DNA of 63,237 nucleotides, filler included, from Rozella allomycis CSF55 (Eukaryota): assembly GCA_000442015.1 (NCBI GenBank). It is 5 parts of 5 records of this genome, joined end to end, with 100 filler letters (N's around TTAATTAATTAA, not from the genome) between each part and the next. Parts side by side here need not be neighbours in the genome. Positions count along the whole stretch, not along the records: positions 1 to 28,810 come from KE560898.1; 4 more parts are not named here. One strand, written 5' to 3'. Below are positions 14,899-62,065 of this stretch, piece after piece. The position numbers and the translations under genes were made by a program. The notes beneath the pieces were generated by a model, which was not told the origin of the DNA, made no database searches, and saw only the letters and a program-made list of their open reading frames with translations. Position 1 is the stretch's first letter. The number at the start of each line of letters is the position of its first letter.

Positions 14899-16374
14899 AT
14901 GGTAAAAATTCAAAATGATCTTTTATTAATAGAAAGTCAAAACGATATCGCATTTGCCGAGAAATAATATACAAGAACGAAAAGGAGATTTACCTATTAT
15001 CAAAAGAAACCCAGATCCATCACTTCATCCATTTCAAAGAGAGAGAGAATATGTTAGAGCTTTAAACGCTGTTAAACTTGATAGAATGTTTGCGAAACCA
15101 TTTATTGCAGCTTTAGATGGACACAGAGATGGTGTATACTGTATTGGAAAGCATCCAACAAGTATAAGACATTTTGTATCGGGATCTGCTGATGGTGGTA
15201 CGATATTCTATAATAGTTAAAAAGAAATAAGGGTTTGGAATTTATCAACATTGGAGTGTTCATGGAAAGCCCAAGCACATCAAGGATTTGTTAGAGGAGT
15301 CTGCTCTGTCCCAAGGTCATCAAGCTTTTTGTCCTGCTCTAGTGATAAGACTGTGAAACTTTGGTCGACTGAATCTTCAAGTGAACTCGTAATTTAATAT
15401 TCTTATTGTTTCTAGCCAATAATGGAGTATGCTTCTAAAGGCGCATTATTTTCAGTTGATCACCACAGAACAATGAAAACGTTTGTTACATCTGGTCCTG
15501 TTGTTGAAGTTTGGGATCATGACAGAGCTGAGCCAGTTCAATCGTTCTCTTGGGGAGTAGATACCGTTCATTGCGTGAAATTTAACCAGTCAGAATCAAA
15601 CATTATTGCCAGTTGTGCATCTGATAGAAGTATAACATTGTATGATATTCGTACCAATACTCCATTGACGAGAGTTATCCTCCAGTTGAAATCTAACTCT
15701 CTTTGCTGGAATCCAATGGAGCCATACAATTTTGCTGTTGCCAATGAAGATCACAATTGCTATACTTTTGATATGAGAAGATTAGATAAAGCAACAAATG
15801 TGCTTAAAGATCATGTTTCTGCTGTGATGGATTTAGATTACAGCCCAACTGGACAAGAAATTGTGAGTGGAAGTTACGATAAAACAATAAGAATATTTAA
15901 TGCAAGAAACGGTCATTCAAGAGATGTTTATCACACAAAGAGAATGCAAAGGTATTAATTTTATCATTGAATTCAACGCAGAGTGTTTTCAGTTAATTTC
16001 TCAATGGATCACAAACACATTATTTCAGGCAGCGATGATGGAAATGTTCGATTATGGAGAACTAATGCATCAGAGAGAATGGGAATTGTAACATTTTAGT
16101 TGATTCATAATAGAAAAATTCAAGAGAAAGGAATGCTATAAACTATGCAAATGCCTTGAAAGATAAATACAAAGAACTTCCAGAAATCAAGAAAATTGCC
16201 AATCATAGACTTGTTCCTACAGTTATTCGTAAAGCTTCAAAGACTAAACGAATTATGCTGAATTCAAGAGCTAGAAAAACAGAGAATGCTTTGTTGCATT
16301 CAAAGAATAAAAACAATGAGGCTTTAAAAAGAAAAGAGGATAGAAAATCTGCAGTTCTTTCATTAGAGAAATAA
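14899..16374 (+). CDS. SOF1: U3 snoRNP WD40 protein SOF1/DCAF13
   Basis: M|KVKTISH; LHPFQREREYVRALNAVKLDRMFAKPF; ANEDHNCYTFDMR; SRDVYHTKRMQR. Confidence 0.96.
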
Positions 16375-17014: not shown

Positions 17015-17300
17015 ATTCTTGGGCAAAGTTCCTGGCACTGTATTTTCAGAAAAGTCGCAAATGCTTCGAAAACACATTGAATACGGATTGTAATCGTGCA
17101 TTTGAAACAACTGCTCTTTATTTCCTAAGTCTTGCTTAAGATTGTGACTTGATTCTGAAGAAAAAGTTGGAACACTATTCCACGGAAGAATTGAACTGTT
17201 GAATCCGGTTGTGGAACATTCGGTGAAGAAAAGCAAGGATGTACAAGAGGCGATACGGATTAGAAATTATGACATTCAAAAAAACAATAGGAGAATGTAC
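17015..17300 (+). pseudogene. Degenerate copy of the 21439-22026 gene
   Basis: TTGATTCTGAAGAAAAAGTTGGAACACTATTCCACGGAAGAATTGAA..TTGAATCCGGTTGTGGAACA matches ~21733-21805 (LILKKKLEQYSLEELKLLNPVVEQ); frameshifted, boundaries approximate. Confidence 0.7.
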
Positions 17301-17318: not shown

Positions 17319-18878
17319 TTAATTTGGACATACGCAAATAGAAGAATCAAGCAAACGTCATTTAGCGTGACTTTTTTGACTTCTTTCAAAGGGCGAAAGC
17401 TCATTCAATACCCTGTCGATTATACTCACTCATAAACTTTAAAGGAACGACCTTTGATTTTCTGTGATGGATAATATTTCTGTCCGTTCATTAAATTCTC
17501 TCAAGCTGGTAGCGTAATCAAAATATTCCATTATTGTTGGACACAAACTCAGGGCCGGCAAACTAATTTTGTCTTGATTGATTTTGGATTCTTCAATTAA
17601 CTTTTCGCAGAAATATTTTACAGCATCATCAAATAATGGCTGTAATTTGCTTAAACCATATTTAATTTGTCTATCCGATCTCCATCCGATTGTATCTACT
17701 GAGAATGGGGAGCTTTAATTTTAAATCGTTTGCTCTAGTCAAATTAATTTGATCAAGACATTTATTCTTTGCCTCATTATAGGTTTCGACAGATTCATCA
17801 GCTTCGTTCTTCAGCAAAGTTATATTTTTCAAATAATCGGCTTTCTCTTTTTCCAAGAAAAAATAATGCTGTATAGCACTGGCCAAATTCTCATTATCAT
17901 TTTTAAATTTCCTTTCAACCCACAATAGTTCATTTTGTGTCATAGAGTTTGTAATTTCGATTTCTTTGATGCCGATTCTTTATTTCTGTTTTCTTCATCT
18001 GGAAATCTGAGGCCATTTGTCCCCTAAAGGAAATGAGACTATAAAAATTAATCTCAATTGATCTTTCTCCTTTTGAAGTGCATCAAGCTCTTTCTTGTTT
18101 TCCTCGTATTTTCTTTTAGCTTCAATCATTGCCTGAGTGCTAAATGTGTTGCCATTATTGTTGACGCAGTTTTTATAGACGTTAGAGTAAGCTTTAGTGA
18201 GAAAATGTTTCCATGTTTCAGGAAAAAAGATTGTATTTCCATCTTTATCTTGAGCGGTGGTATGCCTATAGAATATATATTTCACAGAATTAAGTAAGTC
18301 TTCTGCTTGAGGAGCAACTTTAAGCATTTTGTTTTTCAATTCGTCAATTTTGAGTTTCTCTTCGTCTTCAGTCATTTCAACAGTATCGGCAAATGTAAAG
18401 ACGATGACACCTTGTTTATAGCCTTTTTTGGTTATCAAAGAAGTGATGAAATTAAATTGATTAGCTAAACGGGCATCAGGAGTCCTATTTACAGGAAACA
18501 AGAAAAAGAAAGCATCAAATCCATCTTTTAAGATACCTAAAACTTTTTCTGAGATTAAAGATGCTATTTGATTGTTCTTGGCTTCGTTATCTTCAAATCC
18601 AGGTGTGTCATAACCCTTTTTCCGTCATGAGAACAATCATAGCCAGTTCAATCCAGTGTTAGAGAGACCATCTGATTCCCTTTCTTTGCTATTTCTCTCT
18701 TGTCTTTGAGCTTTAGATCACACAAGCCGTGAAGAACATTTACGATGGTTGATTTTCCGGACCCTGTGTGGCCAAGTAATAGAACATTTAGGCGCCTATT
18801 ACAAACTTCAGAAATAGGAGATGCAACAAATAAGCAAAAAAGGCAGCTTAATATTGTGAAAGCAGAAAATAATTTCAT
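17319..18878 (-). pseudogene. Pseudogenised paralog of the signal-peptide AIG1-type GTPase
   Basis: Colinear with 19643-21265 from MKLFSAF..GHTGSGKST to ..CVCPN*; TGA at 18648-18650 where the paralog has Cys, frameshift just before DTPG, further frameshifts near 18050-17960. Confidence 0.85.
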
Positions 18879-18929
18879 CTGAATTCAGGGGTTTTCATTT
18901 ACGAAATTATCAGATGATTCTACAATTTG

Positions 18930-19642: not shown

Positions 19643-21265
19643 TTAATTTGGGCAAAAACAAATCGAGGTGTTGGACAAACGTTCTTCAACGTTCTTTCTT
19701 TTAGGCGAATAGGTCCTAATACTACTTTCCATGAAGAAATTGATTATTTTCTGTATTTCTGGATACTCACATAATTTGAAAGCTCGCCCTCTGTTTTTGT
19801 CTGTTGCCGATTGAATTTCCTGCGTTCTTTGTTTCACCATATTATTGAATGTTGTCAATTTCTCAGCATATTTACTATAATTTTCAAATGTTGCATTATC
19901 TGATTGCAATGTTGGTTTCACAATTTTGTCATTGTTGATCTTTGAATCTTCAGTTAACTTGTCGCGAAAGTATTGTACAGCCTCTGCAAATAATGGTTTA
20001 GCAACACGCAGTGCATTTGACCAGGACACACTAATTCCGCCTAAAAACGCGCTCGAAACTCTGAGGTCGCCATTGGGTGGTGGTATTTCACGATTGTTTA
20101 TGTCTACACTCCGTATCCAGTTAATTTGATCAAGGCAAGCTTTTTTTGCTTCATTGTACTTTTGGACTAATTCATCGGCTTGATTTTGAAGCGTTGTAGT
20201 GTTTTTCATGATTTGAGCTCTTTCCTTTTCTAAAAAGAAATAATCTTGAACAGTTTTAACCAATTTCTCATTGTCTGTTTTGGATTTTCTTTCAATCGTC
20301 AACACCTCTTCTTGAGTCATAGAACTTGCAATATTAATATTTCTAAAGCCCATTTTTTCAATGTCATTTTTTAATTTTTGTAAATCTGAAGATAAACTAC
20401 CACCGAATAAAGTAATTCTTTGAAAATTCATTCTCAATTGTTCTCTGTCCTTTTGAAGTGCATCGAGCTCTTTCTTGTTTTCCTCGTATTTTCTTTTAGC
20501 TTCAATCATTGCCTGAGTGCTAAATGTTTTGCCATTATTGTTGACGCAGTTCTTATAGACTTCCGAATATGCTTGAAAATGAAACATCTTCCTTGTTTCA
20601 GGAAAAAAGATTGTATTTTCATCTCCATCTTCAGCGGACCTATGCCTATAGAATAAATATTTCACGGTATAAAGAAGTTCTTCAGCTTGAGGGGCAATTC
20701 TAAGCATTTCGTTTCTCAATTCTTCAATTTTTAATTTCTCTTCTTTTTCAGTCATTTTAACATCATCCGCAGATGTGAACACTATAATTCCATGTTTATA
20801 GCCTTCTTTTGTAATCAAAGAAGTGATAAAATTAAAGACATTTGCCAATTGATCATCGGGTACCCTGGTCACAGGAAATGTGAATAAGAAAGCATCAAGC
20901 CCATCTTTTAGTAACATTGGAACCTTCTCCGATATCAGGGATGCTACTTTATTGTTCGTGGCTTCGTTATTCTCAAATCCAGGTGTGTCGACAACATGCA
21001 ATTTTATATCTCCGTTTGAGCAATCATAGCCTGTACAATTCTGGGTAACAGATCGCATATGATTTCCGGTCTTTGCTATTTCCCTCTTGTCGTTAATTTT
21101 TAGGTCAAACAAGCCGTGAAGAACATTCACGATGGTAGATTTTCCTGATCCATAGTACCCTAGTAAAAGAACATTAAGACGCCTATTGCACTGTTCAATG
21201 GGAGAAGCGTGAACAAAGAGGCAACAAAGGGAGCTTATTATTGCGAATGCTGAAAAAATTTTCAT
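19643..21265 (-). CDS. AIG1/GIMAP-like P-loop GTPase with N-terminal signal peptide and C-terminal coiled coil
   Basis: MKIFSAFAIISSLCCLFVHASP (signal peptide); G1 LLLGYYGSGKST, G2 RSVT, G3 VVDTPGF, AIG1-type G4 IIVFTSAD; coiled coil EAKRKYEENKKELDALQKDREQL; intronless 540 aa. Confidence 0.82.
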   Translation of the reverse strand: MKIFSAFAIISSLCCLFVHASPIEQCNRRLNVLLLGYYGSGKSTIVNVLHGLFDLKINDKREIAKTGNHMRSVTQNCTGYDCSNGDIKLHVVDTPGFENNEATNNKVASLISEKVPMLLKDGLDAFLFTFPVTRVPDDQLANVFNFITSLITKEGYKHGIIVFTSADDVKMTEKEEKLKIEELRNEMLRIAPQAEELLYTVKYLFYRHRSAEDGDENTIFFPETRKMFHFQAYSEVYKNCVNNNGKTFSTQAMIEAKRKYEENKKELDALQKDREQLRMNFQRITLFGGSLSSDLQKLKNDIEKMGFRNINIASSMTQEEVLTIERKSKTDNEKLVKTVQDYFFLEKERAQIMKNTTTLQNQADELVQKYNEAKKACLDQINWIRSVDINNREIPPPNGDLRVSSAFLGGISVSWSNALRVAKPLFAEAVQYFRDKLTEDSKINNDKIVKPTLQSDNATFENYSKYAEKLTTFNNMVKQRTQEIQSATDKNRGRAFKLCEYPEIQKIINFFMESSIRTYSPKRKNVEERLSNTSICFCPN

Positions 21266-21438
21266 CCGATTGCAAGGGTTTCCATTTGGGAAAATTTTAG
21301 ATCTCTTCGATTCATTTCAGTTAAAAAAGAAAAAAGAAAAAATATCAAAATACTCAATCTATATTTGTCATAATCTATAAATAGGATTTCATGAATCATG
21401 CTGTGTTCAACTTCATTCTTGGTCACAGACTCTAAATT

Positions 21439-22026
21439 ATGTGCGTAATGAGTTTTAGATTTATGACCATAATGATTCTTGCATCTATTTCACAACTACT
21501 TCCTATTCCCCCTTTACTCTCCGTGCACACCCAAAGAGAAGTGTTTTTAGGTAACAAGCCAGCGACGCCAATACCGAATGCAAGTGAAGCAGTTGATAGA
21601 AATACCCATCAGCACTTGAGATTTAGAATGGAAATGCCAATGAAAATGATAGCCGTGACCGCTGAATATACGAATAAACCTCAAGGCTTTGCGAAACAGG
21701 AAAATGATGTTAAGAATGCGATAGCGGATGATTTGATTCTAAAGAAAAAGTTGGAACAGTATTCCTTGGAGGAATTGAAGTTGTTGAATCCAGTCGTCGA
21801 ACAGTTGGTGAAGAATAGTAAGGACGGTCGAGAGGCCATGAAGTGGCTAGAAAAGTATGATGATATTCAAAAACAAAGATTACGCTTGGAAAATGAAATG
21901 ATGCATAAATCAAAACCAAATTTACTTCCTAGATCTTTGATGTATGGTAGTGGTGGGGCTGTTGTTGGTGCAGCTGCCGCCACATCTATAGATCAATTAC
22001 TGGATGATAAGAATTTTTACATATGA
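21439..22026 (+). CDS. Orphan putative secreted protein
   Basis: Hydrophobic N-terminus MTIMILASISQLLPIP; helical middle; C-terminal GSGGAVVGAAAAT; has a decayed paralog at ~17015-17300. Confidence 0.65.
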   Translation: MCVMSFRFMTIMILASISQLLPIPPLLSVHTQREVFLGNKPATPIPNASEAVDRNTHQHLRFRMEMPMKMIAVTAEYTNKPQGFAKQENDVKNAIADDLILKKKLEQYSLEELKLLNPVVEQLVKNSKDGREAMKWLEKYDDIQKQRLRLENEMMHKSKPNLLPRSLMYGSGGAVVGAAAATSIDQLLDDKNFYI

Positions 22027-37059: not shown

Positions 37060-37152
37060 ATCAATTGTTTTGTATCACAAAGTTAATTTCGTGCTGATCA
37101 ATTTTAAATAGAATTTCCATAACAACTCCCAAACGGAGATTTTTTGAAGACA

Positions 37153-38580
37153 ATGAAACTTTTATCAATTCTTATTTGCGCGCCATTGATTCTTTCTCAA
37201 ATTATTCCAGTGGCTGTTGGAACGGCAGCGACAGGAATGGTGGGTGCAGGCGTCGGTATGAATAAGGAGGAACAGCTTCATGAAAAGTACGACGACGTCC
37301 TTAAGAAAGCGGCATCAATGCTTGAGGTTTTAAGAAGGCAAGGGAAAGATATCCAGCAAAACATCGAGGCGGTCGAAAACGTCATAGCAAATTTGAAGGC
37401 TTTACAAGAAAATCCTGAATTAATCCATTCAATGTCTCCAGGAATAGTTGACCCAGGCCAGAAATTTCAGAATGAGCCAAATGCGCAAATGTTACAGACT
37501 GATGAAGGATGGGCTGATGACCAAGAACCATATCCAGAACAACATATGTATATGCAGCATATGAACGACCCTCATTCTAACGAATATCAAGGAGAGAATG
37601 TTGGAAATTGGGACTCAATTAAGGCACCAGACTATTCAAAGGTACATTTAGGGGCAGTCGATAAAAAATCGCAAGCGTTACATGAAGATTCAAGGTTTCA
37701 AGAAAAGTATAATATGTATGGAAATCCTTATGCAAAGTATTATGGAGACTCCAATTACGATAAATATGAAAAATATAACTCTGCACAAAAAGAACAATCT
37801 TATGATGAATATAATAGTCCTTCGGCTATGCATGATGTTCCTAGTCAGTATGATAGCCCTCAGAAGACTGATTACCATTATAACTCTCCATATTTCGGAT
37901 ATGAAAATGAATCAGATGATTTTGGTTCTTCCGATGGTTATGTTCAACAGGTTCCCGTAAGCAAAAATCGTAGCGATACAAAAACTGCCCAAAAGCTTGA
38001 GTCTGGGAGCAAACAAGAGGAAGGGAATCCAGATCCTAAGCAAGTTGTCGATGAGTATTTAGAATCAAAACAGGCTTTTTCGGATCCGGTGGAGACTAAG
38101 CAAGAATCAAAACAAGTCAACGAACCCGTGGAATCAAAGCAGGCAACAGTGGAGAGTAAACAGTATACAGGAAAACAGAACAACGGTGATGCTAATCCCG
38201 AAAAGGTTGCCGCCAAGTTACAACCAGAAGATCCAGAAGTCAATAATTTGTTAAAGTTAGACTTTTTCGGCGGTGTATCTGACAAGTGTCTTACAAATCC
38301 TATTTCCGATATTGCGACGACTAAGTCGACTGAAAAGAAATTCAATACTCAGATCACCAAAGATAGGAAGATCCAGTCTATGAGACTACGTAAAGTTCCA
38401 AAGGACACAACCATTGAATTTCAAGCAGATGAAAAATATGTGGTTAAACTTTTAGTGAAACATGAAATCATTGATGCCAAGATCTGCTCCTTTGATGAAG
38501 CTGATGGTGAAACCATTAAGATTGAAAAATCTGTAGATTCAAAACTTCAAGGTGTTAAAATCCAAATGAATAAAAAGTAA
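37153..38580 (+). CDS. Orphan secreted protein (signal peptide, Gly-rich segment, coiled coil, Tyr-rich and ESKQ-repeat regions)
   Basis: MKLLSILICAPLILSQ; intronless ~475 aa; short repeats (V/Q)E(S/T)KQ. Confidence 0.7.
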   Translation: MKLLSILICAPLILSQIIPVAVGTAATGMVGAGVGMNKEEQLHEKYDDVLKKAASMLEVLRRQGKDIQQNIEAVENVIANLKALQENPELIHSMSPGIVDPGQKFQNEPNAQMLQTDEGWADDQEPYPEQHMYMQHMNDPHSNEYQGENVGNWDSIKAPDYSKVHLGAVDKKSQALHEDSRFQEKYNMYGNPYAKYYGDSNYDKYEKYNSAQKEQSYDEYNSPSAMHDVPSQYDSPQKTDYHYNSPYFGYENESDDFGSSDGYVQQVPVSKNRSDTKTAQKLESGSKQEEGNPDPKQVVDEYLESKQAFSDPVETKQESKQVNEPVESKQATVESKQYTGKQNNGDANPEKVAAKLQPEDPEVNNLLKLDFFGGVSDKCLTNPISDIATTKSTEKKFNTQITKDRKIQSMRLRKVPKDTTIEFQADEKYVVKLLVKHEIIDAKICSFDEADGETIKIEKSVDSKLQGVKIQMNKK

Positions 38581-38696
38581 GCGTTATCTCTAAACTAATT
38601 TTCTTTTTTCTTTACGTTTTTGTTCCAATTGTATCTTAAATTAAATTTTAGAGAATATATCGCATTGTCTGAGCCACAAATTGTAACGTTACCTAA

Positions 38697-40657
38697 ATGA
38701 TAAATGATTTGAGAAAAGCCATATTTCGCCTGGCATTAGCGAAAAGATATTATTCAAACGGAATATTAGATTCAAAAGTTCTTGATAGCAATATGAACAT
38801 GATACAACAAAAATTATTAGATAGCAACATGCGATTTGAACATGGAATTGAATTAATAAGCAAGTCCAAAAATATTGACAGTGAAGTGTTAGTTGAATTT
38901 GTGAAAAGACATAAAACACACCCCAAGTTGCTAGCAGACTTTTTACCTATGCTTGATGGGTTTAAACATAAATATAATGCGAATTTTCTAAATCTTCTGA
39001 TTGGACAAGCTGCTGTGAGGAATCTTAAAGAAGATGTCTTGAGGGTGTACATGAAGTATGATGAATTGAACATCGCGCGGGATCATTATACATACACAAA
39101 ATTAGTTTCATATGCATCTAGAACTAATGACTTGGAATTATGTAAGTTGTTGAACAACGAATTAAAGAATTTGAGCAACCCAAAACTTGAACCAATTTTG
39201 TATTTATTGCTCATGGAAGTTTTCGCTTCGAGAGACAAATGGGACGAAGTGGAAGAGCTGCATAAATTTATCAAAGATTGTGATCGAAACTTAGACTATG
39301 CGAATATTTTAATGAATGCAGTATTTGCAAGTGATAACATCATGACAAAGTATTATAATCTCTACTGGCAGAATGTGAAAAAGGAAAACTTTAATCTTAT
39401 GATTATACTACTAAAGCGCTTCAGAGCAACAAACAATCGACCATTGTTTTTCAAAACGTTTGAAAAGGCAAAAGAACATAAATTTGCCATTCCGTGTAAT
39501 GTCTATGCGCATTGTCTTCATTTATTTGGGGAAACTGATAAACTTTTCAATTATTATCTTGAGATAAGAGAAGATCCCAAAATACAGCCTTTATTCTTTT
39601 CCACAGTTATCAAATGTGTTGCAGAAACAAAGAGATATGAAATAATTGATTATTTGTGTAAAGATTTCAGAAGAAGAAATGATCTTCTTACTGATTCTCA
39701 TGTCATAAAAGCTTTGGAGATTCTATCGTCAGATAAAGATGTAAATTTGCCCGTCGATATCGCTCAGAATACAGATGCAGATTTGGACACTGAAATTTTT
39801 AACTTGTTAAATGAAACAGAAGAAGATAAAGTAAATAACATCACAAAGGATATTGACTCGGCGTTGAGCAAATTTTATCACATGCTTAAGAACGGGAAGA
39901 TACCAAATAAGACTAGCTGTGTTTTACTATTGAGTCATTTATCACGTGATCCTGAAAAGCATTCAGAATTTAAGAAAGTATTTAAAGTATTTGAAGATCA
40001 AAAATATGATTATTCACCACCTGTCTATGTAATTCTGTTCTCAGTTTTTGGCCGGTCAAAGGATCTAGCTTCGACAAAAAATACTTTTGAAAATTTTATC
40101 AAAGCATTTAAGACTGGCCATTACAGCGTTCTCTTCGCAGCCATNTTCTCTGCGCAGCCATGCACAGTTTTCTATTATGTCAAGATCACGAATCTGTCCT
40201 GAAAGTCTTTGAAGAAATAAAAAATAGGCAATTAAACATAGATAAAGTCGTTGTAAACTATATCTTCACTTCTATATTCAAATCCAATCCTGATGAGGTA
40301 GTGGAACAAGTTGAATATTACCATGAACAATTCCTGAAGCTTAATCTGAACAAGCAGGATTTGTTTTATGAAACAATTAAGTTTTATTTCGCAAGTGGTC
40401 ATTTTGAAGAAGCATGGGCATTGTACGAAGATAATTTTATTCATNCATGGGCACTGTACGGAGATAATTTTATTCATGACTCACAATACTTAGAGTTTGG
40501 TGTCCTCATGCTCAGGAAGAAACGCAAATTTGAATTCTTTGAAAGGTTTTTAGCAATTACAAATGGTGACTTTAAAGGAATTTCATTGAAGTCATTCTTA
40601 GATTTGAAAAAGATGGGGCGATCTTTAGGCATTGACACAAATTACTTTAAAAGATAA
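38697..40657 (+). CDS. PPR-like helical-repeat protein, probably mitochondrial (frame broken at n 40145)
   Basis: Presequence-like RKAIFRLALAKRYYS; PPR-like units DHYTYTKLVSYASR, PNKTSCVLLLSHLSR, PPVYVILFSVFGRSKD. Confidence 0.65.
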
Positions 40658-41694: not shown

Positions 41695-42394
41695 TTAGTT
41701 TATTTTGCTTTGAATGAATTGTACCAGGTCTTCCAATTCCCTATCATCACAAGAATGAGGAAGACCAGGATAATCTTTGAAAGTGCTATATTTGAGACCC
41801 TTTGATGCCAAAATTGAGTGACTTTCTCTTCCCCATTGGAAGGGCACTACTGGATCGTGCGTCCCATGGCCCATGAACAGCGGTGTATCTGAATTTGCAA
41901 CAGCAGTTAACTTTTTTCGCATAGGAAGGAAACCGGATAACGCAATTACCCCATCAACTTTTAAATCAGTTTGATGAGCTAATGCATATAATGAAACGGC
42001 TGCACCCTGCGAGAACCCTTAACAAAAGACAAAAGTAACACTTACCACCAATAAATAAGCGTCCCGAAAATTGTTCCTTTTCTTTCTTTATCAATTCCAT
42101 GAGATCAGTAACGGATCTTTTCAAACCTACTTCATCTTCACGTTCTTCATTGGGATCAAGACTAACAATATCAAACCAAGATTCAACTTTTGAGCCACCT
42201 GCTATAGTTACTTTCATAATCGGTCTATTAAACTAAAGCTATTCCATTTACGACAAAGGCATCACAAATTTTACGTGTGGTAGGCGCTGCGAAAGCATTT
42301 TAAAAGTCATAAACCAGCCATTTCCATGATCACCCAAACCGTGAAGGAATATTACAGTAGCATTATGAGTTGCCTGGGGAGAAATTACGAACAT
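41695..42394 (-). CDS. Acyl-protein thioesterase 1 / lysophospholipase (multi-exon)
   Basis: MFVISPQATHNATVIFLHGLGDHGNGW; SWFDI; G|GFSQGA; PLFMGHGTHDPVVP; YPGLPHS. Confidence 0.92.
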
Positions 42395-42422
42395 GTGGCT
42401 TGCCGCTGGTAGATGTTGTCCA

Positions 42423-43883
42423 ATGAACTGCAGATTAGTTCACCAAATAGTTAGGCACTTACATAAAAAGAAGCATAAAGTACAACAGAATTTAGAAAAC
42501 ATGGTTATTGTTCCAAAGACGAGGACAAAAGATATCTATGCGAATACAATTGTTAATTTTGAGCAACTAGATATATCTGAGAATGTCAGGAATGAATTGT
42601 CGAAAAATATATTAAAGGATGGTCTGTACTTGTCAACATGTGAGTTGTTGAACAAGGTTAATGATATCTTTCCATCGATTTGTTTTAAGGGGATCAAAAG
42701 TGAGAAAGATCCGAATTGGCTATATTCAACAATTGCATCATTCCTTTTTGTAAGATTAAACCGGAGTCCACATGAAAAATGGATTGTTATTCTTAAAAGA
42801 GAATCCGAAATAGAAAAACTGAAAACTGAATTGATTGGAGTATTGTATCCATTTAGAATAGAAACCTATCCAATATTGTTTGAGGAATACTCTAATCAAC
42901 ATAGCGTATTCATCACAAATTCTATAGAAGCAATATACTATCAAAACTATTTTGGGACTATTCATGTTGATGTGGAAGAAAAGAATTTACCGTCGATTGC
43001 TACGAATATAAGATTTGAGGAAGATTTGAATCTAATCAACTTTTCGTTCCGCGACTTATTTGAACTAAAGAAACGGCAACTCGATTTGACTGTCCACAAT
43101 TACTTTATGATTCATCACGCCAATGTGCCTGAATTTATAAAAGAAATTATATCTGATCACATTTTGGATCATGAGAAGGTTGTATTATTTTCAAAACTAC
43201 ATAATGAATCAAACTTCAATTATGATCATTATTTTATCGATGAATCTGACAAGGATTGGGAAATGAAAATAAAGAGATTTTATGATGAAAAGAAGAAATG
43301 TATTTTAGTTTTAAACAGTGAAAATCATTTGCATCTATTGAAGGATAATTCCATTTTGATTGATTTTAATCATTTTTGCTATAAACATGAAAATAGAACC
43401 ATTCGTCGGATATCTTTGATTAGTTACGTTAAAAATGTCTATAAAGTTAATTATTCGAGCGTTCCTGGCTTTTCAGTTCTGAATTGTCACAAAGGGTTCG
43501 TTTCTTGTAAGATTATATGTCACCATGAATCTTACATTCCAATTGTTAAAAAGGTTATTCATAAAAGATACAAGGTTACTTTCTACAACTATCAAAGACC
43601 TTTGGATTTCTTTGTAAATCTTCCAGAGAGTTGGCAGGAAACCAAATTCTATGAAGAATTATCGCCATTTGCATCAATTGAAGAAATTAGGTCAATTCAT
43701 TCGTCAGAGATAAATCCAAAGATTATTAAACAAGATTATAAAGGGCATTTTATCAATGATAGAGCTCACGTAGGATTTAGTTTTGATAGACGAGATATTC
43801 GAGGTCGACATCTGCATGACCCTGAGTATGGCCTGAATGTTTCAGAAATGGCAGCCCCAGGGTTGAAAAGAATCTATAAATGA
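42423..43883 (+). CDS. Hypothetical protein, possibly degenerate DEAD-box-helicase-like fold, putatively mitochondrial
   Basis: Long intronless ORF; presequence-like MNCRLVHQIVRHLHKKK; FEQLDISENVRNEL resembles the pre-Q segment; no Walker A or DEAD motif. Confidence 0.5.
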   Translation: MNCRLVHQIVRHLHKKKHKVQQNLENMVIVPKTRTKDIYANTIVNFEQLDISENVRNELSKNILKDGLYLSTCELLNKVNDIFPSICFKGIKSEKDPNWLYSTIASFLFVRLNRSPHEKWIVILKRESEIEKLKTELIGVLYPFRIETYPILFEEYSNQHSVFITNSIEAIYYQNYFGTIHVDVEEKNLPSIATNIRFEEDLNLINFSFRDLFELKKRQLDLTVHNYFMIHHANVPEFIKEIISDHILDHEKVVLFSKLHNESNFNYDHYFIDESDKDWEMKIKRFYDEKKKCILVLNSENHLHLLKDNSILIDFNHFCYKHENRTIRRISLISYVKNVYKVNYSSVPGFSVLNCHKGFVSCKIICHHESYIPIVKKVIHKRYKVTFYNYQRPLDFFVNLPESWQETKFYEELSPFASIEEIRSIHSSEINPKIIKQDYKGHFINDRAHVGFSFDRRDIRGRHLHDPEYGLNVSEMAAPGLKRIYK

Positions 43884-56819: not shown

Positions 56820-59800
56820 TTATTCAATCATGAATGAGAGACAATCATCTGGCAGCTCTTCAGTCGGAGCCAATAGTTTCAATAACACATTCCTTTCAGC
56901 TCCNCAAACGAAACATACAAGACATGATACTTTTCCAAATATTCGCAATCACCAAAAGAAAATCTGCGAGTGGAATACCAGAATCCTTTTAAAGAGAAAA
57001 TGGATGACTTCTTTTTCTGGAAATGGCCAACTAGTGAAACTTGCGCTGGATTTTGGCTGAATGTTTCTTTTAGTAATGAAAGGAAACTTGGTTGTAGTAG
57101 TTGAAATGGAATGTGTGGAGTAATAAAGTTTTCTGTGGACTGGATATTCTTTAAGAAATGGGCTACGTTTTCTGGCTGTATAGTTGACAGACTAGACAAA
57201 TAATTTGATAAAGAAGCAGGTAAATTGTTATTGTTGTTGGTAGGTTCCACATTGACCAATTTGTAATTGATTGGTTGATAATCAAAGTCTATGTAGTCGA
57301 TGCTTGACAGGCGTGGAATGGAATACTCTAAAAGAATGTTCTTGATCCATTCTCTGCTTTCAGAGGGTTTAAACGATTGATAAAATGACTTCCAATTCTT
57401 ATAGTCAAATGAAAATGAGAATATTCTCGTGAAGTGCAGATTGAAAAGAAAACAATAATCATCAAACATTCTATTGCCACAAATATTTGATATTTCACGA
57501 GCTTTTAATATCAATAGGTTTAAATTCAAAGGATTGAATTGCTTTATGTGATGAAAGTCGTAGAATAAAAGATGAATGAGAATGCCAGGAACAAAAAGAT
57601 CTGGTTCTGATAAAGTTAAATCTAAGAGTGCGTTTAATCTGCTTTCAATCAATATTCTAAAAATAGATTTAAAAATATTCTTACGGTATAAAATTTGTGA
57701 AATTTAGTAAATGACACGTGATGGTATTTTCAAGGGTTGCACTTTCAAGGGTTGGAGATTCACACAGGAAAATAATCCTTCCAGGCAGTTTTAAAGCTTT
57801 ATTAATATTTCGTTTTTCAGTGATAAAGTTTATTTCTGTTGATGGATTTGTTTTATTCAAGTTTAAATCAAAAGAAAATTTGCCTTCCAATTCCACTTGA
57901 AGGAATTGAAGAATATTTGAATCTGACATTAGATTTAGAAATGGGATGATTAATTGAATTATTTTGGAATCAAAAGTTTCAATTAAAGTTAAAATATTCA
58001 TTTGATTTGAATTGTTGATCATTTTCTTTAAAACTGAATGTCTATTGATTTCACCTTTATTGAATTCCACCAACAAGGAATTTCTTAGTCCATTTCTAAC
58101 ATTGTGAACAAATTCATTGCTTATTAATTGTTGCAACATAATTTTCTCATTAACTAAAAGAGAATCTTGAATAAATCTAAAAAATATTTTATAAACACAT
58201 TTCTTCTTTTCAAATAAACAACGATTCATTAAATATTCAAACACAATCTTTTCAATCACTGAAATTTCAGTTTCATTCACTTTAATAACAAAATCAACCA
58301 AATCAATTTCATTTCTAAATTCAAAAGCAACATTGGCAAGAAAGTTGAATTGTTTTTGAAGTTTATTACGCAATGAAACAATCTCATCTGAAATTTTATT
58401 CTTTTCTTTAATTTTTCTTTCATTTTCTTTATGAATTTTATTAAATCTTAGAAATTCTAATCTGCCAGTTTCTGTTTCAATTGAATCTGGAAACTGAATA
58501 GATTCTGTTTCAATTTCTTTTAATTTTTTGAAATAATCAAAATTCTTTTCAATGTAAAATCTCACAAACAAATCACAAAAATGTTGCGGTGAAACATTAA
58601 AACTAAAATTAGAATTACCGTCTGCGCCACGCATCTTGTGATACATTTTAGTGAAAATTGGATCTTTTGACTCTGAAACAACTTTATTTCTTTCATTTCC
58701 CAAATGTTCCAATATAATAATAGATTTCCATGAACAATTATCAAAAGCATTCCAATCAATTCGACAGCCAGTAATACCAGATTGTTTGTTTAGACAATCC
58801 ATCGAATCCCACTGAATTCTATTATTAAACAAATATTCTTTAATTTCATTTTCATTAAATTTATTCAAATAGAGAGCTATAAACAACGAATTCCCAATCA
58901 CATTCAATATTTCCCTTCTACAATCATCAATTTTATCTTCCAGAAATGATTTATATTCTTTAACCTGAAAATTTATACTTTGTTTAAACAAATACTGCTT
59001 TAGTGAATCTCTTGAAAACTTTAGACATGACAGCTGCTTCACAAACTCAATAATCCGCAATATTCCACTATCCCCATCAACATTCTTTATCACATTAACA
59101 TCCTTTTGTTTATTTTTATGGCTAAAAAGCTGTTCACTCTTTTGTATTTGGATTCCCTTCTTCTTTCCATGTTTCAGAAATTTCAGAATCTGATAATGAA
59201 GAGGAAGATTGTAAACAGAAGTGTTGAGAACTTCTATAATAAACTTGTGTAGATAAAACTTGTTATTTATTTGAATGACACAATTCCTATCATCGGTAGG
59301 AAACATCTTTTCCAATGAAATCAATGTCCAATTCAAAATCTCCAATGATTCCACAAACTTTAAACTTTTCGTTTGGCCACTTGAAATCATCTTTTTTAAT
59401 TCGTCATATTCAACCATCTTTTCAGCAAACTGTTTTACAAATCCATTCATTCCAAATTTTCTAATTCATTACAAACAAATTAACATACTTTATTAAAACA
59501 ATACAAGTTTCCAACTGAATAGATTCTAAAACAATCTTCTTTTCTTTCAACTTTACATAAACATTCTTAAAATAGACCTGCCACGGAAACTGCTCGATTG
59601 GTTTATGCAAATACCCGATCCCAAACTTGTAACACCGGTACATCCAAAAGTTTGAATTATTAACCATATGATGCCATCTTCTACTCACAACAACCAATTT
59701 AGAAATACAATCATCTTCTAAATGATAAAAGATGCAGTCTCTAATATCTCCAGGGAAGTTTCCCATCAAATCAAAAGAAAAATCTTTCATTAGTCCATCG

Positions 59801-60554: not shown

Positions 60555-60780
60555 ATTTGAGATTTGAAATTTGAGAAAATAGTTCATAGAGAGCCTCTGC
60601 TACAGCATCACCCCCGTAGTAATAGACTTCGACCATAAGGCCATCGGTTGCAGGTGCTTTACCTAATGCCACATTTTTAATGTTGACAAGGATTGAAACT
60701 TTGGTAATTAGATTTTCAAAGTTGAAAAATTGATCATTATTTATTCCCCCCTCATCTCTTTGGCTTTGATTATTTTCGAT
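60555..60780 (-). mobile_element. Fragment of a second non-LTR retrotransposon RT (N-terminal region)
   Basis: Minus-strand translation IKNVALGKAPATDGLMVEVYYYGGDAVAEALYELF (KAPGxDG motif). Confidence 0.7.
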
Positions 60781-60784
60781 TTGG

Positions 60785-62065
60785 ATCCCTCCCTGGTCCT
60801 AACTCTAAGGCTCCGGGCCCATCATCCATTCCAAACGAATTCTACTCTCCTTTGCCCAATAATCCTAAACACTACCTTCTTGCATTACTCAATGCGTGCC
60901 TAAAATTTAAGGATATACCTAACCAATGGAAGGACGCTAGTATATTTTGCATTCCCAAGAGCTCCACCTGGGATGGCAGCCCTAGTAAACTCAGGCCAAT
61001 TACGCTACTTGAATGTGGCAGAAAAGTCTTTACTCGCATTCTAACAAAGCGGCTGACAGAAGTTATAGACAATAATGAAATTCTAAACCCATATAACTTT
61101 GGCTTCTCTACCGGTCGAAGTACACATGATGTCTTGATAACAATCCGCAACTGTATTGATGTAACACGGGAGACTAAGCAGCCAATCTACATGGCGTGCC
61201 TGGATATCAAAAACGCTTATGACTCAGTCAGCGCAACCTCCATGCGGCTGGCCCTTGAAAGACTCAAAATACCGAGTCAAACAATTGATCTCATTATAAA
61301 TATGGATACGGGGCGGCGATTATCTGTAATTACTAACTATGGTAACACGGATAGCTTCACCCCTGAAAGAGGATTACCTCAAGGTGGAACCTTAGCGCCA
61401 CTACTGAGGAAAATTTTCTACGATCCTCTGATAACGTATCTCAATAGTAACAACGCAAAAGGACTTCACCTATCTTAAAGAGGGAGGACAAAAATATAAA
61501 GGTAAGCGCTCTTGCATACGCCGATGATCTACACCCCATCTCCGCTACACGAGAGGGGCTACAAAACCAACTTGACGTCATCTCTGAATTTCTGCATCTT
61601 CACGGTATTCAAATGGCGGCAAATAAAAGTCATATTCTCACAAACAAATCAGCTGACGAGGTGCTACTTGAACCCCCTTTTATGCTGAATAGAGACCAGA
61701 TCCAGGATATACGTCATAATGGGCATCTAACGCGCGTCCTTGGAGTAGATCTAACGTCCGATGGCCATAACAAACTAATGTTGGCTCATCTAAAGACACA
61801 ACTGCTACATCCTGTATCGGTTATAAAACGCAAACACTGTCCTGCGCCAATACTAATTTACCTGATAAATAGAGTGTTTATCCCTACGGCGCTCTACCGC
61901 CTACAGATAACACCAGTAAATGAAACACAGTTACAACAGGTAAATCCAATCTGGCTCACGCTTGTGAAAAACCGTCTATGCCCGGTTGCACTCCTAACGC
62001 CTGGGTACTTAACCATGAAATAACTAAGCTAGATAATTTTGTCGACATCTACCATCGGCAAATGC
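60785..62065 (+). mobile_element. Non-LTR (LINE-like) retrotransposon reverse transcriptase, frameshifted
   Basis: SKAPGPSSIPNE, WKDA..IPK, RPITLLE..RK, FGFSTGRS, LDIKNAYDSV, RGLPQGGTLAPLL, ALAYADDL (~61515). Confidence 0.92.

Follow-up and report, generated by a model that had tools for sequence, protein, structure and literature searches.

Can a GTPase from a family at home in the cytosol be made for the other side of the membrane, where a parasite meets its host? The question is raised by one gene of Rozella allomycis CSF55, found on the minus strand at 19643..21265 of a window of 63,237 nucleotides (the whole stretch of DNA analysed, in which five parts of assembly GCA_000442015.1 are joined with filler; the gene lies in the part taken from KE560898.1). 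In animals and plants, AIG1/GIMAP GTPases are known as immune and survival factors that are usually cytosolic or tail-anchored. R. allomycis, the earliest-branching fungal endoparasite, lives obligately inside the water mould Allomyces, in line with the parasitic source assumed in the preliminary description of this DNA, and to our knowledge its interaction with the host is molecularly almost unknown. We favour, at a probability of roughly 0.55, the reading that this is an intact Rozella gene for a secretory-pathway GTPase of the GIMAP/AIG1 type whose product becomes extracytoplasmic, either released from the parasite or displayed on it.

An intact gene of the AIG1/GIMAP family

The open frame runs uninterrupted from ATG to TAA through 540 codons and is the third longest of the window. 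Upstream of the start it stays open for 17 further codons until a stop, with no second in-frame ATG; at the base composition of the window, an open frame of 557 codons is expected by chance at about 2e-18 per position, or 2.6e-13 over the window. The second methionine, M70, comes after the P-loop; G1 and a complete G domain are retained only with M1 as the start. The public collection holds the 540-residue protein (P0001) letter for letter, and the public gene model is therefore intronless too, as had been read from the DNA; the intron density ascribed to the genome fits a WD40 gene at about 14933..16374 (+), which is spread over several frames. A 17-codon upstream open reading frame (ORF) lies at 21262..21315 (-), with its ATG at 21315 and its TGA overlapping the start codon of the GTPase (ATGA). 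It matters only where transcription starts upstream of it.

Is the gene alive? The frame could be open and the copy nevertheless unexpressed or non-functional, since the adjacent copy is a pseudogene and several paralogues have degenerate G motifs. However, chance would not preserve a frame of 540 codons in DNA of 35% G+C, every G motif is intact, and the fold is predicted with high confidence throughout. A second assembly of the CSF55 strain also encodes the C-terminal 288 residues (P0012, RKP20012.1, the cluster representative for P0001) with 3 differences, or 98.96% identity. A silent or decaying gene is accordingly an improbable explanation.

The family assignment is carried by both sequence and predicted fold. 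Residues 30-178 match the Pfam family AIG1 (PF04548; E 8.9e-15, 55 bits against a cut-off of 27), as do 16 of the 19 family rows, and among solved structures GIMAP4 is the closest in sequence (E 2.3e-6). G1, G2 (T74) and G3 all align with GIMAP4, and so does a stretch between G3 and G4 that resembles the "conserved box." At G4, where the usual base-specificity motif is [NT][KR]xD, T-S-A-D stands opposite T-R-K-D of GIMAP4: the Asp is retained and the Lys is replaced by Ala. The four intact motifs first described are thus present for G1, G2 and G3 and for the G4 Asp, though not for the G4 Lys.

An AlphaFold2 model built on the 19-row family alignment has a mean predicted local distance difference test score (pLDDT) of 83.3 and a predicted template modelling score of 0.68. 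Its residues 28-255 superpose on GIMAP2 (2xtm_B) with a Z of 18.6 and a root-mean-square deviation (rmsd) of 2.9 Å over 191 residues. Close behind stand GIMAP7 (Z 17.9) and Toc34 (17.7), which together span 17.7-17.9, followed by GIMAP5 (17.4) and GIMAP1 (17.3), while generic or unrelated GTPases score lower (Z about 14); Foldseek likewise finds GIMAP7, at E 1.3e-8. The AIG1/GIMAP identity proposed from the DNA is upheld by the Pfam match, the GIMAP4 alignment and the GIMAP2/GIMAP7/Toc34 fold. On this combination of sequence and model, P0001 belongs to the AIG1/GIMAP family; its G4 is atypical, as is its predicted topology, which is of the export type.

How far does the resemblance go? With the vertebrate GIMAPs (GIMAP2, GIMAP7, and GIMAP4) the Rozella protein shares the family, the fold, G1-G3 and a helical extension after the G domain; the last, a criterion for the name "GIMAP" in Lu et al. 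(2020; PMC7053062), is present in the model. Identity to GIMAPs is just about 14-21%, and P0001 differs from them in having a signal-like segment instead of a cytosolic start, no C-terminal transmembrane (TM) segment, Ala for the G4 Lys, a Cys ahead of strand β1, and a tail of about 290 residues, far longer than GIMAP tails and without a match to them. The chloroplast import receptor GTPases Toc34 and Toc33 have a similar G-domain fold (Z 16.3-17.7), but they are tail-anchored, cytosol-facing plant proteins with neither a signal peptide nor such a helical tail.

Cysteines are found at residues 14, 15, 26, 77, 82, 240, 377, 499, 536, and 538, and C26, C77, C82, and C240 recur in most paralogues, which agrees with the shared extra cysteines already noticed in the neighbouring copy. 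C26 lies about three residues before strand β1, in the motif C-[NDST]-[RK]-P-L-N. By eye, such a Cys is present in 13 of the 16 N-termini of the wider clade described below, including 10 of the 12 complete ones from Rozella, and it is not seen in the aligned GIMAP4. C26 may be partnered by C82 or C240.

The signal-like start and its predicted orientation

P0001 begins with MK, followed by IFSAFAIISSLCCLFV, a run of 16 uncharged residues, and by HA|SP. Signal peptides, by the rules of von Heijne, have a positive n-region, an h-region of about 7-15 hydrophobic residues and small residues at -3/-1, and the V-H-A|S-P of P0001 reads by eye as a textbook fit to the cleavage-site rules. Residues 1-20 have a pLDDT of 44-53 and fall outside the structural G-domain match, which starts at residue 28. 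This is also the sole segment of the protein whose Kyte-Doolittle mean over 19 residues (KD19) exceeds 1.6, reaching 1.98, so there is no C-terminal TM segment. Two features reported from the DNA are thereby confirmed, the missing C-terminal TM anchor and the hydrophobic N-terminus ending FVHA-SP before G1, a signal-like start being conserved clade-wide. The C-terminus (...SNTSICFCPN) is by eye free of a K/HDEL-type retention signal and of a hydrophobic end of the glycosylphosphatidylinositol (GPI) type.

Might the segment address the protein to mitochondria? Any N-terminal extension could in principle be an organellar presequence rather than a signal for the endoplasmic reticulum (ER). Mitochondrial presequences are Arg-rich and amphipathic, whereas residues 1-27 of P0001 contain one Lys, no Arg and the uncharged hydrophobic run of 16 residues, and we regard this destination as very improbable.

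Stronger evidence for a signal comes from the relatives. An exhaustive HMMER search returned 223 matches at E <= 1e-3 and 15 at E <= 1e-30; all strong matches bearing a name are Rozella proteins, deposited just as hypothetical or AIG1-type G domain-containing proteins, and the five best relatives all belong to R. allomycis CSF55. Counted from deposited proteins, the family comprises about 15-17 distinct sequences after merging at >=92% identity, and at least 10 loci in the reference annotation, nine under O9G_ tags and one that of P0001. P0002 (O9G_005908), on another contig, runs from the last part of one copy into the first part of the copy that follows, which implies tandem arrays at another locus too. 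When G domains are placed in a tree of 150 rows, the 15 from Rozella group together (support 88), and the sister of this group consists of five metagenome proteins (support 92; union 90). A subsample of 64 rows, with every third non-family hit, reproduces the picture; these are FastTree trees with local supports and midpoint rooting, and their grouping is no more than an indication. Outside the clade, the nearest relatives with a name are GIMAPs of birds and fish. The closest homologues are thus Rozella paralogues and their metagenome kin, not ordinary cytosolic GTPases with the same N-terminus, and the sequences describe a lineage-specific expansion with tandem duplication and decay. None of the outcomes named in the preliminary description as contradicting a secreted GTPase was observed. 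A metagenome scan yielded four loci that were rejected as family members, being EF-G-like translation GTPases in DNA of 52-71% G+C.

All 12 Rozella paralogues whose N-terminus is complete have a signal-like start (P0001, P0013, P0003, P0006, P0014, P0158, P0020, P0021, P0163, P0164, P0005, and P0016, with P0005 and P0016 counted from an internal family-type Met on the assumption that their deposited starts are mis-called). The pattern is MK, MKK, or MW, then 10-21 uncharged residues and a small-residue/Pro motif about 8-10 residues before β1; deposited models that start inside or after the P-loop (P0002, P0004, P0012, P0015, P0018, P0019, P0022, P0023, and P0026) are uninformative here. In the sister group an export-type segment is carried by all four complete N-termini, the fifth protein (P0090) being incomplete at its start. 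P0027, P0036, and P0061 are signal-peptide-like, P0061 reading MIFNKR-FLLGIGLVASFIPGTLA|AH. P0065, with MKTTKRK, a hydrophobic helix of 23 residues and a linker of 45, looks like a type II signal anchor of the same outward orientation. Across the whole clade, a segment of the ER-targeting type is found in 16/16 complete N-termini.

Is this common among AIG1 proteins? The control set comprised 89 further AIG1/GIMAP hits that begin with Met and reach the P-loop within 60 residues. Six pass the hydrophobicity threshold, three of them by virtue of strand β1 itself, and three are truly signal-like (P0101, P0126, and P0149); these lie elsewhere in the 150-row tree. A survey of 91 snail AIG1/GIMAP genes reports no signal peptide for any of them (Lu et al., 2020, PMC7053062). 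What is new here is that, in the sequences compared, the export-signal-like start is a feature of the clade and rare in other AIG1 proteins (3/89). The three signal-like controls, from metagenomes or an unnamed assembly, look unrelated and begin with segments resembling those of signal peptides or lipoproteins. AIG1 GTPases of the export type may have evolved repeatedly.

Which way would the G domain face? Under the charge-difference rule of Hartmann et al., the charges flanking the hydrophobic segment predict its orientation. Taken as the 15 residues after the h-region minus the N-flank, with the amino group counted, the difference is negative for 13 of the 14 N-termini and 0 for the remaining one, which by that rule would place the N-terminus inside and the G domain on the extracytoplasmic side. 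Four members have h-regions of just 10-11 uncharged residues, and P0003 has no 19-residue window above KD 1.6; such segments are too short for a membrane anchor. Charge and length together argue against an N-anchored GTPase facing the cytosol, that is, a reverse signal anchor comparable to the SRP receptor beta subunit (SRP, signal recognition particle), with which the protein would be an ordinary membrane-tethered GIMAP-like GTPase of the parasite cytosol. Such a topology would suit the company the protein keeps, since GIMAPs and Toc34 are membrane-tethered cytosolic GTPases and Toc34 and GIMAP2 are top fold matches. It would also provide GTP, which is present in the cytosol, and with its 16 uncharged residues and its hydropathy the h-region of P0001 is borderline long enough for a short anchor. 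However, the one clear TM segment of the clade, in P0065, has the positive N-flank of an N-in/C-out protein, and the 8-10 or so residues between the h-region and β1 in Rozella members leave almost no linker for a domain seated on a membrane. We hold the reverse orientation to be distinctly unlikely. Two options remain, a protein that is cleaved and released or one that is type II-anchored and displayed, and the sequences suggest that the G domain faces away from the parasite cytosol in both.

A proposed host-facing GTPase

If the GTPase is indeed of the secretory pathway, residues 1-20 would act as an ER signal sequence for co-translational import, with cleavage most likely after Ala20 (V-H-A|S-P). 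The G domain (29-245) and the helical tail would end up extracytoplasmic, either exposed on the surface of the wall-less parasite or released from it, inside the host. GIMAPs are nucleotide-dependent scaffolds on intracellular membranes; by analogy, the mature protein would most likely bind GTP of host origin and would assemble on host organelles or on the membranes where host and parasite meet. Judged by its N-terminal architecture, synthesis probably delivers the enzyme to the outward face of the parasite's membranes, towards the host, and the proteins with this start form a credible candidate for a host-exposed GTPase family. A modest further hint of luminal passage comes from the N-x-S/T sequon at N355, whose middle residue varies (NTT, NIS, NVT, NNT, NLT, and NIT) among the 9 of 12 rows that have it; this is the only column with a sequon in at least 60% of rows, and three control motifs give 0 such columns.

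Would the protein then leave the parasite? It could be a resident of the parasite's own secretory or endolysosomal system, kept in the ER or Golgi, in food vacuoles that digest host cytoplasm, or in storage vesicles of the zoospore or cyst. To such a protein the same signal-like N-terminus applies, and the N355 sequon fits any luminal route. Rozella plasmodia are described as phagocytising host cytoplasm (Letcher et al., PMC6317583), so a luminal protein could meet host material, nucleotides included. Against residence, P0001 has no second hydrophobic segment and, by eye, no retention or GPI-type end; moreover, tandem, decaying, lineage-specific families with signal peptides follow the pattern of host-exposed proteins reported for microsporidia, although as a correlation only (Reinke et al., 2017, PMC5423893). 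Residence inside the parasite seems to us unlikely.

The microsporidian parallel makes export to the host side plausible in other respects. Microsporidia, which are relatives of Rozella, are reported to expose to the host families that bear signal peptides, are clade-specific and are locally duplicated, and to secrete hexokinase (Reinke et al., 2017, PMC5423893). Like the protein proposed here, that hexokinase is a normally cytosolic, nucleotide-using enzyme that carries a signal peptide and is described as secreted into the host. The microsporidian families bear no sequence relation to P0001, and Nematocida lies directly in the host cytoplasm whereas Rozella sits in a compartment. A second parallel is offered by the intracellular bacterium Amoebophilus, whose GIMAP-like GTPase effectors are proposed to remodel host membranes; viral GIMAP-like genes are described as well (Aravind et al., 2012, PMC3417536). 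As in the proposal made here, a GIMAP-like GTPase would be deployed by a parasite or symbiont that lives inside cells. The bacterial and viral proteins have other export routes, while Rozella is a eukaryote with a Sec-type N-terminal signal, and the likeness is drawn from their published description.

Several points weigh against an exported enzyme. The signal call is a rule-of-thumb reading of the n-, h-, and c-regions and of positions -3/-1, made by eye and by script. In P0006, P0014, P0016, and P0158 the h-region ends ...IVA-PPV, with Pro at +1 of the obvious site. Signal peptidase disfavours Pro at that position, and given these paralogues cleavage may not be general in the family. The deposited models of P0005 and P0016 place 92 and 13 extra residues ahead of the signal-like segment. 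Of 15 listed sequencing runs, eight contain the stretch or part of it, and no RNA run is among these. G1 and G3 are degenerate in P0016 (GPYGAEKS, DTPE) and P0006 (GYYGASKS, DTPV), as is the motif of P0020 (AGTLG), and with such motifs and a pseudogene neighbour some family members, as read from sequence, are not enzymes. The N355 sequon falls within a helix that is predicted with confidence, and its role could be a structural one.

Where would the nucleotide come from? A GTPase needs GTP, and we know of none in the secretory lumen. Rozella has NTT nucleotide-transporter genes, and microsporidian NTTs of the plasma membrane are reported to import ATP and GTP (Heinz et al., 2014, PMC4256464); host purine nucleotides would thus reach the parasite surface in this lineage, and by extension in Rozella. 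A final difficulty is the place where the parasite lives, which is described as a compartment lined by inward-pushed host membrane (Letcher et al., PMC6317583). Free access to the host cytosol cannot therefore be assumed, and release into the host cytoplasm would need a further step.

A bolder proposal can be set beside the favoured reading: that Rozella and its uncultured kin export a dedicated clade of GIMAP-like GTPases through their own plasma membrane, and that these take up GTP from the host and form polymers around the naked parasite, on membranes derived from the host or on its organelles. We consider it doubtful. If it were true, an immune-type scaffold would have been turned into a parasite weapon, and secreted GTPase effectors would act from one eukaryote on another. 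The C-termini touch on this proposal. A Cys within the last six residues is found in 4 of 10 complete C-termini (P0020, P0004, P0001, and P0003), and two of the ends are CaaX-like (P0020 ...CCIL and P0004 ...CLKA), which is odd for proteins with a signal peptide unless they are lipidated in the cytosol of another cell. Host prenylation of bacterial effectors is a known trick, and the CaaX-like ends would fit host-directed export because a signal-peptide protein could be lipidated only in a foreign cytosol.

What would an exported GTPase mean? A GTPase scaffold would be placed on the parasite's side of the host-parasite conflict, Rozella would gain a concrete candidate effector family, and the source of its GTP would reveal what the host-parasite interface lets through. 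If the signal goes unused, what is left is merely a lineage-specific GIMAP expansion of modest interest. The suggestion that the effector family is undescribed stands in part: our search found no paper on the Rozella protein, whereas the protein itself is already public and GIMAP-like bacterial effectors are in print, as described by Aravind et al. (2012; PMC3417536). The search also found no paper that joins Rozella and AIG1, nor, by title or abstract, any on a Rozella GTPase, although the genome paper (James et al., 2013), the ultrastructure paper (Powell et al., 2017) and their supplements may mention the family or the interface membranes. In a review that mentions both Rozella and the secretome, the word "GTPase" occurs 0 times (PMC6690862).

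Helical tail, tandem copy and neighbourhood

After the G domain the model continues with helices at residues 250-285, 293-305, 318-382, 415-441, and 460-491, the long ones being 250-285, 333-382, and 460-491. The tail of about 290 residues keeps a pLDDT of 83.5 when modelled alone. The long coiled coil claimed for it is borne out as far as long helices in the model go, and its coiled-coil character is suggested by those helices only. Does the tail resemble a known fold? A Foldseek search with the tail alone against the PDB gave 0 matches at E <= 1e-3. XaxB, SmhB, F-BAR and SMC coiled coils, the best rows of that search (E 0.16-0.7), were rejected as the tail fold. The VIA wide search was also set aside, its best Z of 8.9 lying below the value of about 13 expected by chance for helical models, as was the single match in the ESM Atlas, which at 0.78 fell under the lead threshold. 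As modelled, the tail is a helical domain that does not clearly resemble any solved fold, and it is assigned neither as a pore-former nor as a BAR domain or stalk. Whole-length Foldseek matches to LeoA, GBP2, and the bacterial dynamin pair share with P0001 a G domain followed by a long helical stalk; with TM-scores of 0.21-0.26 and an rmsd above 33 Å this is an architectural resemblance only.

Table 1. Features of the GTPase gene and its surroundings, in coordinates of the window.
Feature	Position	Strand	Evidence
Complete single-exon coding sequence (P0001), 540 residues + stop: signal-like N-terminus, AIG1/GIMAP G domain, helical tail	19643..21265	-	ORF, Pfam, deposited protein, model
Signal-peptide-like segment, residues 1-20: n-region MK, 16-residue uncharged h-region, c-region V-H-A then S-P	21206..21265	-	Sequence, hydropathy, pLDDT
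C26, Cys before β1	21188..21190	-	By eye
GIMAP/Toc-type G domain, residues 29-245	20531..21181	-	Pfam AIG1, structural match, Foldseek
G1 P-loop GYYGSGKS, residues 36-43	21137..21160	-	Sequence, alignment
G3 DTPG, residues 93-96	20978..20989	-	D93, T94, P95 invariant in family alignment
G4-equivalent T-S-A-D, residues 164-167	20765..20776	-	Aligned with GIMAP4 FTRKDD; T164, A166, D167 invariant in family alignment
All-helical tail, residues 250-531, disordered loop 390-413	19673..20518	-	AlphaFold2 model, tail-only model, fold searches
N-x-S/T sequon N355-T-T, conserved	20195..20203	-	9/12 family rows with a residue there
Degraded tandem paralogue (public model P0013, 276 residues)	17322..18915	-	Nucleotide comparison, frames, deposited models
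Divergent 195-residue ORF P0165, deposited as such	21439..22026	+	173 nt from GTPase start; in duplicated unit
Remnant of P0165-type ORF beside pseudogene, 138 nt	17145..17282	+	78% nucleotide identity to 21729..21873

The neighbouring paralogue, taken at first for a second gene copy, is a pseudogene. It adjoins the GTPase gene downstream on the same strand, with 75% nucleotide identity over 1188 nt, and retains the signal-like start MKLFSAFTILSCLFCLFVA-SP. The codon of Cys77 has changed from TGT to TGA, a deletion of 7 nt precedes DTPG, and beyond it the frame is broken again by shifts and stops. In the public model P0013 the lesion is bridged by a tiny "intron", and the protein terminates where a stop is reached in frame; since the deposits of both assemblies give the same 276-residue model, the lesions are not the error of one assembly.

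The duplicated unit included both the GTPase and the divergent ORF P0165. P0165 has a hydrophobic N-terminal stretch of its own. It was considered as a GTPase-activating protein and rejected, RasGAP_C being matched only below threshold (E 0.037, 14.6 bits against a cut-off of 26).

The surrounding genes are ordinary: RPL5, a ZNF598-like gene, the WD40 gene, a nucleolar-type GTPase, a carnitine acyltransferase and pentatricopeptide repeat (PPR) proteins. Long open frames of 485-594 residues at 37123..40202 (+), 42369..43883 (+), and 57681..59465 (-) match no Pfam family at E <= 1e-5. An ORF at 60726..61478 (+) contains a reverse-transcriptase domain (RVT_1, E 1.6e-21), is flanked by paired assembly gaps of 44 N, and is probably part of a retroelement.

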